Shown here: one piece after another, positions 1,627-39,330 of the stretch
Layout: the number at the start of each line of letters is the position of its first letter
Position numbering within the stretch: position 1 is the stretch's first letter
Assembly (NCBI GenBank): GCA_965263035.1
Contig: OZ253580.1
Coordinates: forward strand, 6,080,001-6,144,000
DNA from: Acidobacteriota bacterium
GTDB lineage: Bacteria > Acidobacteriota > UBA6911 > RPQK01 > JAJDTT01
Direction of reading: 5' to 3'
Length of the DNA: 64,000 nucleotides
The notes under the pieces: generated by a model
What the model was told of the DNA's origin: nothing
Database searches by the model: none
The model's input: the letters and a program-made list of their open reading frames with translations, nothing else
Program-made: the position numbers and the translations under genes

Positions 1627-1793
1627 CTAGGAGTCTGCGCGGTAGAAATGATCGTAGCGAGAAAGTGGGGAATCGAGGCCAGATTTTCTCGATTTGGAGG
1701 TGCATAGTTGTTCTATTCGCCGAGAAATCGAGGAAATATGGACCGATTCTACCGCTTTCGCAGTAGATCAATTTCTGCGGCGCAGGCTCCTAG
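1627..1793 (+). mobile_element. MITE family A, copy 1 (159-bp core, flanked by CTAG on both sides)
   Basis: TIRs GAGTCTGCGC/GCGCAGGCTC; near-identical copies at 34623-34789 and 54711-54877; no ORF. Confidence 0.88.
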
Positions 1794-1890
1794 GAGGGGC
1801 GACTTTCTTGTCGCCCACTCCGGTCTTGTTCGCTCACGCCTCGGGGTTTCGTTACTCGGGAGTTCGGCGGCAAGAAATCCGCCGCCCCCA
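1791..1890. repeat. REP-like palindrome doublet
   Basis: TAGGAGGGGCGACTTTCTTGTCGCCC ... GGCGGCAAGAAATCCGCCGCCCCCA; same family as 26331, 26991, 28368, 33659 and 34875-35564. Confidence 0.7.
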
Positions 1891-33658: not shown

Positions 33659-33683
33659 TGGAGCGGCAACTTTCTTGTCGCCG
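33659..33683. repeat. REP-like palindrome
   Basis: TGGAGCGGCAACTTTCTTGTCGCCG. Confidence 0.6.
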
Positions 33684-33830: not shown

Positions 33831-34595
33831 GAACCGAAACTCGTGATCCGGACCCTGGACATGCCGCACAAAGGCTTCCGCGAACTCGCACCGGTACTCG
33901 GCGCCGCGGAATCGGTTCATCAGGTCATGCCGCCGATACATCCCCTCCGGGTTCTGACTGGCGTGGGCATAGGTAGCCTTCTTCTTCAGGGACTCGGTCG
34001 CCGTAATATCCACGTAGTGGGTGGGTGAAAAGGTCTGGCTCTGGATCCCCGAGTAGACCTCGTAGAAGTAGAGGTCGAACTTCCGGTCCATTTTCAGCCA
34101 GGCATCGAAAGCCAGCGTGCCGGCCGCGCGGTGATCGCGGTGGCGGTCGATGGGCCAGTGCGTGAAGAGAAGGTCCGGGTCTTCTCCCTGGATGATCTTC
34201 AGGAAATCCTCGTAGCGCCGATTTCCGGTCTCGGTGTCGCCGTCGATCTGCCCGGCGAAGAGGGGACGCGCTCCCAGAATCCGGCACGCTGCCTGAGCCT
34301 CGGCAGTGCGGATGCGGGCGGCCTCTTCCAGCGACTTTCCCCGGATCCCCCGCTCGCCTCGGGTCAGGTAGAGGGCCGTCACCCGGTGTCCCGCGCCGGC
34401 GTAACGGGCGATGGTCCCGCCGCAACCGGTTTCGGGGTCGTCCGGATGGGCTCCCACGACTACGACCTTGAGTCGGTGGTTGCCCTCGGATTGCTCCGCA
34501 GGGGTCTCGCCCTCGCCTGCGGCGAGCCCTAACAGCGTCCCGCCGGCCAATACTGCCGGAACACCCAACAGGTCACGTCTCGGGATCGATGGCAT
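33828..34595 (-). CDS. PIG-L/LmbE-family deacetylase with TAT signal
   Basis: PRRDLL, GAHPDD, HRDH, HASQ, AEAF. Confidence 0.9.
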   Translation of the reverse strand: MPSIPRRDLLGVPAVLAGGTLLGLAAGEGETPAEQSEGNHRLKVVVVGAHPDDPETGCGGTIARYAGAGHRVTALYLTRGERGIRGKSLEEAARIRTAEAQAACRILGARPLFAGQIDGDTETGNRRYEDFLKIIQGEDPDLLFTHWPIDRHRDHRAAGTLAFDAWLKMDRKFDLYFYEVYSGIQSQTFSPTHYVDITATESLKKKATYAHASQNPEGMYRRHDLMNRFRGAEYRCEFAEAFVRHVQGPDHEFRF

Positions 34596-34622
34596 CTCAT
34601 GCCTCCTTGGAGGAGCGACGTT

Positions 34623-34789
34623 CTAGGAGCCTGCGCCGCAGAAATTAATCTACTGCGAAAGCGGTAGAATCGGTCCATATTTCCTCGATTTCTCGGCGAA
34701 TAGAACAACTATGCACCTCCAAATCGAGAAAATCTGGCCTCGATTCCCCACTTTCTCGCTACGATCATTTCTACCGCGCAGACTCCTAG
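34623..34789 (-). mobile_element. MITE family A, copy 2 (inverted)
   Basis: Reverse complement of 1627-1793, CTAG on both sides. Confidence 0.88.
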
Positions 34790-34885
34790 TCGCCCAAATC
34801 CTTCGCTTATATTCCCCCTCGCACCAGTTTCCCTCTTCATCCGTCGCCTTGTCGCTTCAAGCTCCTCCGGAGTTCGGCGACTGGA

Positions 34886-35527
34886 GTCGCGGTAGGGACG
34901 CCGGTTGCCCAGCGCCCCCCGCGCAGATCCGTGCGTGCCCGTTAAGGCACACGGCTCCTACCTCAGGTAATGACGGCAGGTCGCGACGCCCGCCGTATCC
35001 GACCCCCGCCTGTGTCACGGTAGCCCGGCTCTGAGTCCGGTCCGTACTTTGGTGAGCCGAATTCCCCTTGGTTCCACCCCTTCGCTCCACCGACTCCGCA
35101 GAGAGTTCCCCCTCCTTGTTCGCCCGCTTCATCACTACTATGGGTGAATCCGATTGCTTCCTCTCTCCCCTCATGGGTTACGGCTTTCCCCTTTCCCACA
35201 AGGCCCCGGCTCTCGCCGGGGAGAGAGTAAGCCCTCCCAGGTCCCGACACCAGATGTACGTACGTGCATGGGTTCTTTGACACCGCAGAGCCCGGCTGCC
35301 CCTCACCCTGGCGGTCCAGCCGGTGTTGCCTTCGACCGCGACTACAGCCTCGGCACTTCCGATCAGGGAGCTTTCGATGCTCAATAGCCTGCCCATACGC
35401 ACCGCTACCGACGCTTCGCCGACACCCTCACGGGTGCCCACGCACGGCTCGCGGAGAAACGTGGATGGTTAGTCCTTCGTTTCAGCGGACTTTCACCGCC
35501 TATCTTGTGCCAGTTAGCCTGGCGCAC
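34886..35527 (-). mobile_element. ORF-less group II intron (642 nt) inserted in a REP palindrome
   Basis: 5' GTGCG; domain V GAGCCGTGTGCC..GGCACGCACGGATC (34957-34926); domain VI ending CCCTACCGCGAC; EBS1/EBS2 complementary to the 5' exon; only short RT-terminus remnants in domain IV. Confidence 0.9.
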
Positions 35528-35577
35528 AGTCGCCGCTCCTGCTCGGCGGTTGGAAACCGCCGCTTGTCTGTTTAAAT

Positions 35578-35744
35578 GGGGCCGTCCGGGTCGCTCATGA
35601 GCGACCCGGACGGCGGTGGCTGGACCGTACCGCCGCGGACTGTTACGAACCGTATGGGAGTGAGGTCGGCCACCGTCTTTCCCGATGTCCTGAATGGATA
35701 CGAGGGCATCAAGGCCCGAATGACAAGCACAGGAGACAGGAAAG
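35578..35744 (+). ncRNA. IS110 bridge RNA (5' hairpin, target-binding loop, donor-binding loop)
   Basis: Perfect hairpin 35581-35614; guides ACCGCCGC (35629-36), ATGGGAG (35654-60), ATGGATAC (35694-701), GACAAG (35722-27); RNA ends approximate. Confidence 0.82.
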
Positions 35745-36692
35745 ATGAAACAGCATACCGTAGGCATCGACATCTCGAAAGCGCACCTGGACGCGCACCG
35801 GCTGGCCGACGGCCATTCCGCCCAGTTCGACAATGACCCGGCCGGCTTCCGGGCGCTGATTGATTGGATCGGAACTCCGGTCGAGTGCGTCGCGTACGAG
35901 GCCACCGGTCCCTACCACCGGGACCTCGAGGAAGCGCTGTCCAAAGCGAAGCTGCCGCTGGCGAAGGTGAACCCCTGGCAGGCGCGGCGCTTCGCCGAGG
36001 CGACCGGGAGCCGCGCCAAGACCGACGCCGTAGACGCTCGGAAACTGGCCCAGCTGGCCGCCACGCTGGAGCCGCGCCGGACCCAGGTGCCGTCCAAAAC
36101 GCAACGCCGGCTCCAGGATCTGCAGACGTCCCGGGACGCGCTGATGCGCCAGCGCACGGCCGCGCTCAACCGCCGCCGACAGCTCCGCGAACCCCTGCTC
36201 AAACAGCAGAACCAGATCCAGATCAACATGTTCGAGCGCCACCTGCGCGCCATCGACCGCAAAATGCAGCAGCTGATTGCGGCCGACGAGGCGCGGGCCC
36301 GCAAGTTGGAGATCCTCACCTCCATCCCGGGGATCGCGGCCACCACCGCCGCCGGTCTGCTGGCCGAGATGCCCGAGCTGGGCGCCCTCAGCGGCAAGGC
36401 CGCCGCCAGTCTGGCCGGGTTGGCCGCCGTTCCGCGCGAGTCGGGGGCTTGGCAGGGCCGGGCCTTCATCCGGGGCGGACGGGCGCGGGCGCGACGGCTC
36501 CTGTACATGCCGGCGGTGGCCGCCCTGCGTTGGAACCCCGACTTGGCCGAGGTGTACCGGAGGCTGAGCGAGCGCGGCAAGCCCGGCAAGGTGGCCCTCG
36601 TCGCCGTCATGCGCAAGCTTATCGTCCTGGCCAACACCCTCGTCCGGCAGGACCGCACCTGGTTGCCCGTAGCGCCCCGAGCGACCTTCTGA
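35745..36692 (+). CDS. IS110-family DEDD recombinase/transposase
   Basis: GIDISK, EATGPY, AKTDAVDA, SIPGI, GLA..PRESG, AVMRKL. Confidence 0.95.
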   Translation: MKQHTVGIDISKAHLDAHRLADGHSAQFDNDPAGFRALIDWIGTPVECVAYEATGPYHRDLEEALSKAKLPLAKVNPWQARRFAEATGSRAKTDAVDARKLAQLAATLEPRRTQVPSKTQRRLQDLQTSRDALMRQRTAALNRRRQLREPLLKQQNQIQINMFERHLRAIDRKMQQLIAADEARARKLEILTSIPGIAATTAAGLLAEMPELGALSGKAAASLAGLAAVPRESGAWQGRAFIRGGRARARRLLYMPAVAALRWNPDLAEVYRRLSERGKPGKVALVAVMRKLIVLANTLVRQDRTWLPVAPRATF

Positions 36693-37086
36693 GGCCACGG
36701 AGAAACCCCGTGAGGAAAGGGAGCGTGTGGACCCCCTGATGGCCGTCTGTCGAACTTCCGGTCAAGTCTGGCCGGAAGCTTGCTTACGGCCATGAAAGCT
36801 CTTCACGCCCTGGGGAGCGCCGGGTCACCCGAAGGGTCGCAGCGAAGCGGAGGAGCCGGAGGCTTGACCCGACGCTCCCCAGGGCGTATCCGGACCTCCC
36901 GGAGGACTGACGTCGACGATCTCAGGTCCCTCGATCCAGTTATCGGTCCACTCATCGCCCCCTGCACGGCGCCCGGCGGATCCAGCTCGATCTCCGCCTC
37001 ACCTCCGGCGGAAGAACGCTCCTCCTAACCCTGTGCCCTTTGGACCGGACAGATCACGTACTAACGACACGGGATGGAAACACCGA

Positions 37087-39330
37087 TTAGCACCCACCAC
37101 TTGCAACATGGATACTCCTCTCCAGAAACCGGTCGGTGCTGTCGGGATCGATCCGGCGGCAACTCCGGCGCAGGGCGAGAGCCACCACTTCCAGGTCCCG
37201 GCTGCAGGCGGTGTCCCACTTGGAGAGCGCGGCGAACTCGCCGCACAGCAGGGCCAACCGGAGCATATGGCGAAACAGAATCCCCTCCTGCTTGACCAGA
37301 CCGCGGCTGTGGACGAACCGGTTGAAGTTCCCGCCGAGATCCAGGAGGTGCCCGGCGGCCCAGACCGGCCGAACCCTCAACTGGGAGACCTGGGGCAATC
37401 GCCCATTGAAGACGAGCCGCAGCTTGGCGGCCAGAGTCGGACCCGGACCCGCCTGCATGAGTTCCTCCCGCAACCTCGTCTCCGTCCCCCCGGCCGGTCC
37501 CAGCCGCGCCAACTCGGGATTGAGACAGTTCGTCTCCAGCGGTCCGGGGTCCAACCTTCGAGCGTCCGGTACCGGAACGGATCGGGCGACGGCTCCCGAG
37601 AGCTCCAGCACGCTCTCCAGGGCCTGAATTCGCTCGCTCCGGCTGGCCCGGGGGAGCAGATCCCTCAGGAAGTCGCCGTAGAGGGGATTGATGCCGCGAA
37701 AGGCCAGCAGCCGATCCAGCCGCGGCGTGGCCTGGGCCAACACCGGCCGGTAGTCTCCGCGGTCCTCCGGATCCGGAGGCGGCTCCGGGTCCAACGTCAC
37801 ATAACCTCCCAGCCGGAGGGTGAGCAGCATGTCATTCAGGGCTCTCTGGGCCGACTGCACCGCTCGGGCGCTGAGCAACCGCTTCCCGACCATGGCTCGG
37901 ACCTCGCCGACCCGGGGGGAACGTTTCAACAGGTAAGCCAGATACCTCCAAGGCAGGGGGCCCCGGCTGGCCAGGGCCGCCGGCCGCGCGGCGACCAGAC
38001 GGCGAAACTGGGCCTGGTCCCAAGCGGGCCGGTTCTGCCTCCCGGACCTCATCTTCCGGGCCAGGGACTTGCGAGCCTGGCGAAACGCGGACTTGCGGGT
38101 GCGGGCGGGGATCGACTCCAACCGCCGCTTGCGGCGCAGGAGTTTCACCTGTTCCTCCGGCGCCAGGGCCAGGACAAAGCCCCGCCGGTCCCATTGGGGC
38201 CGTCCGGCCCGGCCGAAGATCTGGTGGGCGGTGGTGGCGTCCAGCGCCCGTTTCTGCCGGGGCGGGCCCTTGACCAGGCTCTTCAGCACCACGGACCTGG
38301 CCGGCAGATTGATCCCGGCCGACAGGGTCTCGGTGCAGATGACCACGGGGAGAAGCCGGCGCTGGAACAACTCCTCCACCACGCGCCGGTACTTGGGGAG
38401 GATCCCGGCATGATGAACCCCCACGCCGCGCAGCAGGAGTTGCCGCAGGACGGGTCCGGCTCCGTCGGACAGGTCCAGGTCCCGTACCCGGGCGGCCAGC
38501 GTCCGCTTCCGGCTCCCGTCCACCAGGGGCCGGCCCTTGAGCCGTACCGCCATCGACCAACACTCCCGGCGGTTGAAACAGAACACCAGACAGGGGCTCC
38601 TTCGCCCCTTCTTCCCTCCCCGGACCAGTTCCACCAGCAGCTCTTCCAGCAGCAGGTCGCCGACCCACTGGTACGTCAACGGCACCCGCCGTTCCCTTCC
38701 CTGGAGCAGCTGCATTTGCCGGCCGTGGCTGTTCCGAAGCCAGCGCGTGAAGGACTCGGGACGGCCCACCGTGGCCGAGAGCAGCAGCAGCCTCACGTGC
38801 TTGGGAAGCAGCGAAAGGGACAACTCCCAGACGATGCCGCGTTCCGGGTCCCGGAACGTGTGGAATTCGTCCTTGACCACCACGGCGACGCGATCGAAAT
38901 CGAAGTTGTCGGGTCGCAGCAGGCGATTGAGGAGGATCTCGGCCACCACCACCCGTACCGGCGCGTCAGGGTTGACCTGCCGGTTCCCGGTCACCAGCCC
39001 CACGGTGTCGCCGGGGAATCCCCAGCGTACGGCGGCGGCCTGCATCTCCCGGAATTTCTGCTCGGTCAGCGCGATGAGCGGAGTGGTGTAGTAGGCCGTT
39101 CGGCCGCTGTGGAGAGCCTCGAAGAGGGCCCCTTCGGCGATCAAGGTCTTGCCGGTGCCGGTGGGCGCGGTCACCAGCAGGTCCTCTTCCGAGGCGTACC
39201 AAGCCTCCAGAGCGTCCCTCTGAAAAGGATAGGGTTTGAAAGGAAGAGACTGCAGGTAACGATCCAGCAGCTCTCGCCGCCGGGTCGAGGCTGTTTCGAT
39301 CACTCGCTGGGAGTCAGCCGTGGACCTCAC
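37087..39330 (-). CDS. Ski2-like DEAD/DEAH-box helicase; present C-terminus supplied by the IS110 right end
   Basis: APTGTGKT, DEFH, LSAT, HHAG, TETLSAGINLPAR, QIFGRAGR. Confidence 0.9.
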   Translation of the reverse strand: MRSTADSQRVIETASTRRRELLDRYLQSLPFKPYPFQRDALEAWYASEEDLLVTAPTGTGKTLIAEGALFEALHSGRTAYYTTPLIALTEQKFREMQAAAVRWGFPGDTVGLVTGNRQVNPDAPVRVVVAEILLNRLLRPDNFDFDRVAVVVKDEFHTFRDPERGIVWELSLSLLPKHVRLLLLSATVGRPESFTRWLRNSHGRQMQLLQGRERRVPLTYQWVGDLLLEELLVELVRGGKKGRRSPCLVFCFNRRECWSMAVRLKGRPLVDGSRKRTLAARVRDLDLSDGAGPVLRQLLLRGVGVHHAGILPKYRRVVEELFQRRLLPVVICTETLSAGINLPARSVVLKSLVKGPPRQKRALDATTAHQIFGRAGRPQWDRRGFVLALAPEEQVKLLRRKRRLESIPARTRKSAFRQARKSLARKMRSGRQNRPAWDQAQFRRLVAARPAALASRGPLPWRYLAYLLKRSPRVGEVRAMVGKRLLSARAVQSAQRALNDMLLTLRLGGYVTLDPEPPPDPEDRGDYRPVLAQATPRLDRLLAFRGINPLYGDFLRDLLPRASRSERIQALESVLELSGAVARSVPVPDARRLDPGPLETNCLNPELARLGPAGGTETRLREELMQAGPGPTLAAKLRLVFNGRLPQVSQLRVRPVWAAGHLLDLGGNFNRFVHSRGLVKQEGILFRHMLRLALLCGEFAALSKWDTACSRDLEVVALALRRSCRRIDPDSTDRFLERSIHVASGGC

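Follow-up and report, generated by a model that had tools for sequence, protein, structure and literature searches.

We describe a 642-nt group II intron without an open reading frame (ORF) that lies in a 64-kb stretch of an Acidobacteriota genome and that very probably belongs to a IIB-like family homing into the loops of repetitive extragenic palindromic (REP) hairpins. The stretch, called the window in the following, comprises positions 6,080,001-6,144,000 of a genome (G000) that is assembled as a single 6.198-Mb contig and was scored 97% complete. The intron occupies window positions 34886-35527 on the minus strand, starts with GUGCG, and ends with CGAC. In the explanation that we favor, its ribozyme domains are intact, the gene for the intron-encoded protein (IEP), a reverse transcriptase (RT)/maturase, has been deleted, and the element is a non-autonomous copy. 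As judged from aligned sequences, the comparison with sister copies showed that the family finds REP hairpins by base pairing between exon-binding sites (EBS) of the intron and intron-binding sites (IBS) of the exons, and that changes of the EBS are matched by REP variants. Handles beginning with G and L denote genomes and loci.

Identity and domains of the intron

The original prediction, made from the letters of the window, had described the element as an ORF-less group II intron. The sequence statements behind it (the exon ends, the motifs AGUCGC and GCUCC, REPs at 1791 and 33659, and remnants of an RT) were all found again at their positions, and the identification itself was confirmed with Rfam models. 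RF02005 (group-II-D1D4-6) matched positions 35271-35493 of the minus strand with its full model (1-225), 165.4 bits, and an E-value of 6.6e-48 (gathering score 49), and this was the sole gathering-level Rfam match across the 64-kb window. RF00029, the model for domains V and VI (D5/D6), matched 34886-34959 on the same strand with 36.9 bits when relaxed thresholds were used, about 3 bits short of its gathering score of 40. The features of the intron and its exons, in window coordinates, are:

34886..35527, minus strand: ORF-less group II intron, 642 nt, 92-100% identical to 6 other full copies
35271..35493, minus strand: domain I core (RF02005, 165.4 bits)
35367..35371, minus strand: EBS2 GCUCC, intron nt 157-161, unpaired in the RF02005 alignment, covarying with exon positions -12 to -8
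35338..35343, minus strand: EBS1 AGUCGC, intron nt 185-190, terminal loop of the EBS1 hairpin in the RF02005 structure line
35278, minus strand: proposed EBS3, A, intron nt 250, the next base after GCGGUGUC, based on covariation with the first 3' exon base
34977..35174, minus strand: domain IV remnant that retains the initial ~56 codons of the IEP with its start codon, up to the deletion junction around intron nt 547-551
34886..34959, minus strand: domains V and VI (RF00029, fold, compensatory D5 changes)
35528..35539, minus strand: 5' exon target with IBS2 GGAGC (35535-35539), spacer G, and IBS1 GCGACU (35528-35533)
34875..34885, minus strand: 3' exon with IBS3 U (34885), loop UCC, and REP stem 3' arm AGUCGCCG

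The intron's 5' terminus, GUGCGCC..., is located at position 35527 (GUGCG at 35527-35523) and the 3' end, ...CCCUACCGCGAC, at position 34886; the GUGCG start and the ...GAC end both agree with the group II terminal consensus (5' GUGYG, 3' AY). Five G000 copies and L062 contain an internal CTACCGTGAC that mimics the 3' end, at an apparent length of 514-516, and is not the true terminus. Domains V and VI contain the AGC triad, an AC bulge, and, at a distance of 8 nt from the 3' end, a bulged A. The D5 helix has been kept via two compensatory changes relative to full-length, RT-bearing parents from related genomes, and its loop is of a non-GNRA type, either UUAAC, or UAAC closed by a U-G pair. 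In the ribozyme helices of 15 ORF-less copies, five pairs were changed on both sides and few pairs were broken. These numbers are pair counts in local helices, the only purpose for which the RNAalifold consensus of the 15 copies was used, as it mis-pairs the 5' end with D5.

Exon recognition and the REP hairpins

In the RF02005 alignment, AGUCGC forms the terminal loop of the hairpin GCC-GA-GGCU[GUAGUCGC]GGUC-GAA-GGC, and GCUCC lies in an unpaired stretch upstream of this EBS1 hairpin. Both motifs are thus inside, and not outside, the EBS positions of the model, as had been proposed. The 5' exon ends with GGAGC-G-GCGACT, and the 3' exon starts with TCCAGTCGCCG (RNA: UCCAGUCGCCG). For the analysis of covariation, the first 260 nt of about 50 copies were aligned together with their exons. 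The copies represented 45 unique insertion sites, and 43 of these were scored for pairing, while two copies with an insertion over EBS2 were left out. EBS1, EBS2, and EBS3 pair with exon positions -1 to -6, -8 to -12, and +1, respectively. The EBS1/IBS1 pairs were AGUCGC/GCGACU, AGUCCC/GGGACU, AAUCGC/GCGAUU, AACCCC/GGGGUU, GGGUGC/GCACCC, GGUCGC/GCGACC, and GGAUGC/GCAUCU, and the EBS2/IBS2 pairs were GCUCC/GGAGC, CCUAC/GUAGG, and CAUGC/GCAUG. IBS1 was paired at six of six positions at 40 of the 43 sites (at 24 of them with Watson-Crick pairs throughout), and IBS2 at four or five of its five positions at 42. The candidate EBS3 (A, G, or U) matched the first base of the 3' exon (U, C, or A), with a Watson-Crick pair at 42 of 43 sites. 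Seven EBS sets were distinguished, each of which covaries with its own targets across lineages, and the mean number of paired positions was 11.4 of 12 with the EBS of the site's own intron versus 9.0 with the EBS of other lineages. The complementarity of EBS1 and EBS2 to a REP hairpin, the core of the original prediction, is thereby supported both by the position of the EBS in the Rfam domain I model and by covariation. Taken at the level of these alignments, exon recognition is of the IIB type, which rules out class C.

The joined exons of the window copy form the hairpin CGGCGACT-TCC-AGTCGCCG (RNA CGGCGACU-UCC-AGUCGCCG), which is perfect, as had been stated, with a stem of 8 bp and a loop of 3 nt. 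The intron is placed after the first loop base. IBS1 corresponds to the 5' arm of the stem (exon positions -8 to -1 form this arm at the window site), and IBS2 corresponds to a GGAG or GUAG tag in front of the stem. At 32 of the 45 sites, the insertion point is enclosed by a perfect stem with a length of 6 bp or more; inspection of the remaining sites by eye revealed about eight with one mismatch or wobble and about five that are non-hairpin.

These hairpins are abundant in G000. The commonest are GGCGACTTTCTTGTCGCC, GGCGGCTTTCTTGCCGCC, and GGCGACTTCCAGTCGCC, with 87, 68, and 25 exact copies, respectively. In total, 290 hairpins with major loops were found, of which 42 lie inside coding calls that cover 75% of the genome (a rough gene caller based on GC content at third codon positions was made for the analysis). 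The tag is GGAG in the major families and GTAG, at the matching place, in a minor family; REPs have been described to end in a GTAG tag (PMC3733652). G000 also encodes a protein that resembles REP-associated tyrosine transposases (RAYTs). The 224-aa ORF matched NF047646 (REP_Tyr_transpos, REP-associated tyrosine transposase) with 73.9 bits, the cut-off being 80, and PF01797 with 35 bits, which is above the cut-off. The gene is flanked on both sides, in direct orientation, by one composite unit consisting of a REP, a spacer of about 90 nt with a GGGGGGAC hairpin, and an inverted REP, and intron copy 6 starts 11 nt past its stop codon. The composite unit resembles a REPIN doublet. A weaker Y1 match was present in G000 at 3478135-3478365. 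By their sequence context, the hairpins behave as REPs: they occur in high copy number, are mostly extragenic, and flank a RAYT-like gene. The gene and three further REP units, which lie in the window, are:

L074 1390-2064, minus strand (G000:C1:2482813-2483487): RAYT-like Y1 transposase gene, 224 aa
35544..35562, minus strand: neighbouring REP unit CGGCGGU-UUCCA-ACCGCCG, between the end of an insertion sequence (IS) of the IS110 family and the occupied REP
1791..1816, plus strand: empty REP, IBS-like TAGGAGGGGCGACT/TTCTTGTCGCCC
33659..33683, plus strand: empty REP TGGAGCGGCAACT/TTCTTGTCGCCG

An alternative explanation of the preference for hairpins is that the structure itself is recognized in single-stranded DNA, as class C introns recognize the stem-loops of terminators or attC sites, and that the EBS only fine-tune the choice. 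The 32 perfect and roughly eight nearly perfect hairpins among the 45 sites would be in line with it, as would the position of the copies on the strand that is transiently single-stranded at replication forks (see below) and the behavior of a second intron family of G000, for which the same REPs are nothing but an upstream stem-loop in all 25 copies. However, because IBS1 is the 5' arm of the stem, pairing with EBS1 requires that the stem melts. In addition, the non-hairpin sites (L021/L067, L042, and L061) nonetheless match the EBS, and related RF02005-type introns elsewhere in the phylum have exons that are unrelated, form no hairpin, and fit the EBS1 of the respective intron. We thus regard recognition of the structure as an unlikely explanation and targeting by base pairing as the better one.

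Precise insertion is apparent from orthologous sites without intron. At the site of copy 2, the REP arrays of G013 and G010 are uninterrupted and lead into the same sequence downstream. At the window site, G014 and G008 have an uninterrupted hairpin, with 37 nt of G014 being identical to the joined exons, whereas G013 and G010 do not have this REP. Such sites bear on the possibility that the introns were multiplied as DNA along with REP units, whether through RAYT action, recombination, or segmental duplication, with no retrohoming involved. REP arrays indeed differ in unit number between close genomes, two ORF-less G013 copies that are only 560 nt apart (L017/L025) share identical 3' exons, and some occupied hairpins combine the arms of two REP subtypes. 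But the flanks of seven copies are unrelated beyond the REP, the empty REPs at orthologous sites are intact, EBS and IBS covary, and the copies follow the replication strand more strictly than the REPs do, so that we give this explanation hardly any credence. At orthologous loci (L120-L127, L086-L093), the REP arrays of congeners comprise from zero to more than five units, and loci without a REP unit contain GGAGCG once instead of twice, which hints at a route of unit gain or loss.

The notion that REPs serve as many homing sites is supported by the perfect stems at 32 of 45 sites, the 290 hairpins, and the orthologous empty sites. The proposal that the REPs at 1791 and 33659 are candidate empty sites held in part. 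Each is one base off the occupied site, and the IBS of the REP at 1791-1816 equals the IBS at the occupied sites of copies 2 and 4; however, both are on the plus strand, an orientation in which no copy of the family is found in their replichore.

Sequencing runs that contain the window stretch include sponge metagenomes. In assembled contigs of four runs (three RNA-library runs of one study and one of unknown kind), an exact skip of 642 nt joins position 34885 to 35528. The expected junction of ligated exons is GGAGCGGCGACT/TCCAGTCGCC. The joint may be a splice product or the empty allele of another strain, and the two are indistinguishable because the shorter side comprises 37 nt and the joint is also present in the run of unknown kind. 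Depth, ends, and RNA strand cannot be read from the assembled contigs of any of the four runs, and the uncovered stretch 34500-34593 in the RNA runs carries no meaning. Other joints in those contigs lie within or beside a high-copy element that is described below, or join repeats.

Deletion of the reverse transcriptase, replication bias, and mobility

G000 contains seven full copies of the intron (92-100% identical, three of them 99.8-100%) and one 67-nt 5' fragment. The flanks past the REP are unrelated among the seven, whereas the 5' exons have the form GGAG-N-GGCGRCU or, in one case, GUAGGGGUGCCC. The sister copies thus bear out the proposed targeting, with this motif in 7/7 full copies and compensatory EBS/IBS changes in seven lineages. 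A family-wide search yielded intron matches in each of 8 further genomes of the genus and in none of 6 genomes of the sister genus. The congeners carry dozens more copies, including a 1.9-kb RT-bearing parent (in G011, G013, G009, and G007). The prediction had pointed to the genome itself for sister copies and a parent; the former were present, but the latter was found only in congeners.

In the parents of the four genomes, intron nt 1-547 and 551-642 are matched around an insert of about 1273 nt with an ORF of 499-519 aa. The 519-aa protein matched TIGR04416 (group II RT/maturase) with 351 bits over residues 83-455, and RVT_1 was the only Pfam match; profile searches for an endonuclease domain in the parent IEP gave no HNH match. 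Tblastn with the parent IEP detected its residues 6-56 (75% identity) at 35007-35159 and residues 490-519 (63%) at 34890-34979, and each ORF-less copy of G000 keeps residues ~1-56 (70-75% identity) and 490-519 (63-66%). The remnant 'STDRTQSRATVTQA' aligned with 'STRRTQSRGSVSQA' of the parent IEP, and 'PAVIT-stop' matches, in an alignment by eye, the alternative C-terminus 'LTVTTQGRSRVP' of the G009 parent. The RT/maturase of the window copy is thus deleted and only the ends of the IEP remain. The two remnants share one frame, and an in-frame deletion of about 1.27 kb would have removed IEP residues ~57-489 from domain IV and spared the ribozyme. The earlier claim of an internal RT deletion is vindicated by the parent in congeners, the location of the deletion in domain IV, and the common frame of both ends. 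A functional peptide encoded by the remnant mini-ORF was considered and ruled out: no peptide is maintained, because 9 of the 15 ORF-less copies in the comparison have a disrupted frame.

In a tree built from the first 540 nt, the ORF-less copies (from G000, G007, G010, and G013) formed one clade and the full-length copies another, and this topology therefore points to descent from a single deletion event, as far as the sequences tell. Over intron nt 1-547, the ORF-less lineage shares 84-88% identity with the parents, and it comprises at least four sublineages of target specificity. In G007, 12 ORF-less copies face one full-length copy, and in G000 seven face none; ORF-less and related full-length introns occur together in G013 and G007.

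Several copies had unusual structures. Interrupted ORF-less copies were found at L063 (G007), L066 (G013), and L027 (G010), one with an insert of about 2 kb near intron nt 587 and two with an AT-rich insert of about 113 nt in place of the EBS2 region. At L110 (G308) and at L017/L025 (G013), copies are arranged head to tail; in G308, one starts directly after the last base of another. The 67-nt stump of G000 (G000:C1:4424636-4424702, L008) has the same flank in L069 (G013) and L070 (G010), and thus in three species; it is an old insertion of which the remainder has been lost.

The orientation of the copies was compared with the direction of replication. In G000, the minimum of the cumulative GC skew (2.86 Mb) coincides with dnaA (2.87 Mb), and the maximum is found at 5.84 Mb. 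All eight copies, including the fragment, are co-directional with fork movement, compared with 64% of the 290 REPs in the same orientation sense (p = 0.029 against this background and 0.004 against one half). In the congeners G007, G011, G013, and G009, the strand of the copies flips at dnaA. In G007 (dnaA at 2.89 Mb), five copies at 1.63-2.58 Mb are on the minus strand, nine at 3.08-4.81 Mb on the plus strand, and one at 5.33 Mb on the minus strand. In G011 (3.50 Mb), five copies at 0.87-3.11 Mb are on the minus strand and five at 4.30-5.42 and 0.01 Mb on the plus strand. In G013 (5.01 Mb), one copy at 1.90 Mb is on the plus strand, 12 at 2.16-4.69 Mb are on the minus strand, and three at 5.17-6.09 Mb are again on the plus strand. 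The four copies of G009 are consistent with dnaA at 1.45 Mb. This bias fits insertion into the lagging-strand template, as in other endonuclease-less introns; it is the preferred pathway of RmInt1, which is also endonuclease-less (PMC1802570).

As the comparison of the sites shows, EBS1 pairs with the 5' arm of the REP stem and the first loop base, EBS2 with the GGAG/GUAG tag immediately upstream of the stem, and EBS3 with the next loop base, and the intron therefore lands in the loop of the hairpin. Lineages with altered EBS letters occupy REP variants with matching letters. For the insertion itself, the following route can be proposed. The end of nascent DNA would prime cDNA synthesis, as has been established for RmInt1, and therefore every copy would come to be co-directional with replication. 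The REPs would supply hundreds of extragenic sites, often just beyond a stop codon.

The source of the RT in G000 is less clear. A blastn search at word size 7 revealed no RT-bearing parent at the nucleotide level, and tblastn of the parent IEP revealed no cognate RT. G000 has eight PF00078 matches, and tblastn with the cognate IEP found six of these regions, with the best resident RTs being 31-37% identical. The introns of the two resident RT families tested match other domain I models, namely RF02001/RF01998 and RF02003. G010 (94% complete) also has ORF-less copies, and the search found no full-length parent there. The RT gene of the resident intron family with proteins of 438-471 aa is interrupted by an insertion of about 2.2 kb at G000:C1:5053672-5056566 (L014, L015). 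We infer that the ORF-less introns have been mobilized in trans. The G000 copies have either been stranded recently or rely on an RT that is encoded beyond the one assembled contig. The RT may have been lost very recently, its gene may be carried by a replicon missing from the assembly or by co-resident strains, or a heterologous RT may serve.

There is about an even chance that the G000 copies are stranded fossils, in a lineage that recently lost the cognate RT and in which nothing moves any longer. The failure of blastn and tblastn to find this RT in G000 would be explained, and so would the frameshifts of the remnant ORF in 9 of 15 copies across genomes and the very rare occupation of matching sites; the 67-nt fragment with its common flank in G000, G013, and G010 illustrates that old insertions persist. 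The three near-identical copies, however, suggest very recent movement, and the ribozyme helices have almost no broken pairs. It is considerably less probable that the copies are still mobile in G000, served either by a non-cognate resident RT (515-aa or 438-471-aa type) or by a cognate one whose replicon, a plasmid or other, is missing from the assembly. Three copies with unrelated flanks are 99.8-100% identical, at least five intact RT ORFs of other intron families are present in G000, the ORF-less copies retain the IEP start region of domain IV, and G010 is a second genome in which ORF-less copies were found and a full-length parent was not. On the other hand, the resident RTs are just 31-37% identical to the cognate IEP and belong to introns that match other domain I models, maturases are usually specific to their own domain IVa, and the assembly is 97% complete (that of G010 94%). 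A broader view, which we put forward as a rather doubtful speculation, is that the ORF-less element forms a long-lived parasite lineage akin to short interspersed elements (SINEs), which is specialized on the REP/RAYT system, is re-aimed by single EBS changes, and remains mobile without an RT of its own via a heterologous resident RT or RTs on transient replicons.

Several points weigh against a IIB-like intron that homes into REP hairpins and has moved recently. No cognate RT was found in G000, yet three copies are virtually identical. About five of the 45 sites lie outside hairpins, so that the hairpin may be incidental. Occupancy is low, as only 4 of 228 sites that offer six Watson-Crick pairs with IBS1 and at least four pairs with IBS2 are used. 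The copies near the termini of the congeners (at 5.33 Mb in G007 and at 1.90 Mb in G013) cannot be scored. The contig with the 642-nt skip covers just 37 nt upstream, and the skip also occurs in the run of unknown kind. Lastly, RF00029 scored 3 bits below its gathering score, and the middle base of the AGC triad (G) is opposite an A and not a U, as it also is in the multi-copy parents.

Related systems, co-resident elements, and significance

The closest parallel is offered by RmInt1 and RmInt2 of Sinorhizobium meliloti (class D, IIB3), which share with the present family an endonuclease-less RT/maturase, targeting by EBS1, EBS2, and EBS3, and a multi-copy repeat as home. An RmInt1/RmInt2 form with a deleted ORF (delta-ORF) is mobilized efficiently by the IEP in trans, and RmInt2 makes use of either inverted repeat of an IS (PMC1802570, PMC5894124). 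Their targets are insertion sequences (ISRm2011-2 and ISRm17), in contrast to the REP hairpins used here, and the available parts of the two papers mention no natural delta-ORF lineage with retargeted sublineages of its own, as is found in the present family. Class C introns (IIC, IIC-attC) are similar in their association with stem-loops, the many dispersed sites, the lack of an endonuclease, and the link to replication (PMC4424553, PMC7923331). However, the insertion site of IIC introns is downstream of the stem-loop, EBS2 is missing from them, and their IBS1 has just 3-4 bp, whereas the 642-nt intron resides inside the loop and has a 6-nt EBS1 that pairs with the stem arm as well as covarying EBS2 and EBS3, so that the contrast to class C that had been drawn from the sequence stands.

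The class of the intron may be D, E, or F. Classes IIE and IIF have a IIB-like fold, 450-700 nt without ORF, an endonuclease-less IEP, a covarying EBS2-IBS2 pairing, and a non-GNRA D5 loop (Nagy et al. 2013, PMC3753933). Further marks of these classes are a D5 loop of 5 nt and, in DId3, an extra bulge and an alpha' at the tip of a stem-loop (PMC3753933). The present intron recalls them with its 642 nt (including the domain IV remnant), the UUAAC-like D5 loop, the endonuclease-less IEP, and the IIB-type EBS3, and class D shares the features of IEP, size, and exon recognition. The accessible text of PMC3753933 mentions no REP targeting. No class label is attached to the closest annotated plasmid IEPs, which share 53-59% identity with the parent IEP. 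One of them, a widespread Klebsiella pneumoniae plasmid gene annotated as 'ltrA' (L102), is 53% identical; no Rfam intron RNA was found within 1.5 kb on either side, and the locus was unusable as a classified RNA reference. In the literature on RF02005, Enterobacterales introns, and class D-F ORFs, as far as its text was available, neither a class for relatives of the parent IEP nor a class mapping of RF02005 was found.

Among 301 sampled Acidobacteriota genomes, RF02005-type introns with matches at E <= 1e-80 were present in 16, with IEPs 48-54% identical. The exons of nine copies at eight such loci are unrelated, are not REPs, and fit the EBS1 of the respective intron. The idea that RF02005-type introns target REPs in general was thereby ruled out, and REP homing is a trait of this genus lineage, because its relatives sit in non-REP exons.

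REPs are known targets of insertion sequences (ISPpu9, ISPpu10, ISPa11, and IS1397; PMC1525189, Tobes and Pareja 2006), which land in REPs like the intron and the adjoining IS110 element but, unlike the intron, are DNA transposons. Two of nine copies of Pseudomonas putida group II introns are listed as REP-associated in a line of a table (PMC1525189). Apart from this line, the literature searched with REP terms contained no description of REP-loop homing by group II introns, and the niche thus appears to be new to the literature. ORF-less bacterial group II introns are described as rare and nearly always accompanied by a related IEP in the genome, and as an accepted family variant (PMC4424553). 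G013 and G007, with ORF-less and full-length introns together, agree with this pattern, in contrast to G000 and G010, in which no cognate IEP was found.

The REPs of G000 are associated with further mobile elements. The second group II intron family mentioned above comprises about 25 copies, of which about 23 are ORF-less (most of them ~640 nt) and two carry a 515-aa RT; its domain I matches RF02001/RF01998. Its location is:

G000:C1 529488-531335 (L009) and 24 other places, the nearest to the window at 6059983-6060612: second intron family

All 25 copies are inserted directly after an opposite-orientation REP hairpin plus CUC, and this family, unlike the 642-nt intron, thus behaves in a class C-like manner with the same REPs. 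Of its copies, 21 of 25 are co-directional with replication, versus 36% of the REPs of that orientation. The IS110-family element at window positions 35555-37118 encodes a transposase at 35745-36692 on the plus strand (DEDD_Tnp_IS110 and Transposase_20), has a length of about 1565 nt and about 12 copies in G000, and adjoins the REPs upstream of the window intron. Its left end, which contains a 34-nt perfect hairpin, abuts a REP, and another copy lies between the RAYT-like gene and its upstream REP unit. Downstream of the intron, at 34623-34789, there is a 167-nt element that resembles a miniature inverted-repeat transposable element (MITE), with imperfect terminal repeats beginning with CTAGGAG as read by eye; a repeat search of 34500-34900 at seed 9 did not detect any inverted repeat. 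G000 contains about 175 copies with a length of 150 nt or more and up to 99.4% identity, and contig depth in metagenome runs is very high. Congeners have a REP-like hairpin at the same spot, and the MITE also seems to be inserted in a hairpin loop. If the SINE-like view of the ORF-less lineage were true, REPs would be landing pads common to two intron families, an IS110 element, and a MITE in a sponge-associated genus.

Group II introns home into genes, insertion sequences, and other introns, and class C introns insert behind terminators or attC sites. A IIB-like lineage that lands inside REP hairpins with a full EBS1/EBS2/EBS3 code would have hundreds of harmless sites per genome at its disposal, and seven EBS/IBS pairs give a direct reading of its natural retargeting. 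The ORF-less derivative lineage outnumbers its parent in some genomes, two intron families exploit the same REPs, the second in a class C manner on the other orientation, and the replication-strand bias is clean in five complete genomes. As a natural system, the family lends itself to the question of how introns without an endonuclease gain access to structured single-stranded DNA at replication forks, and it could reveal how non-autonomous introns persist. It also points to compact, retargetable introns (with a ribozyme of ~0.55 kb) that have a short, readable code.

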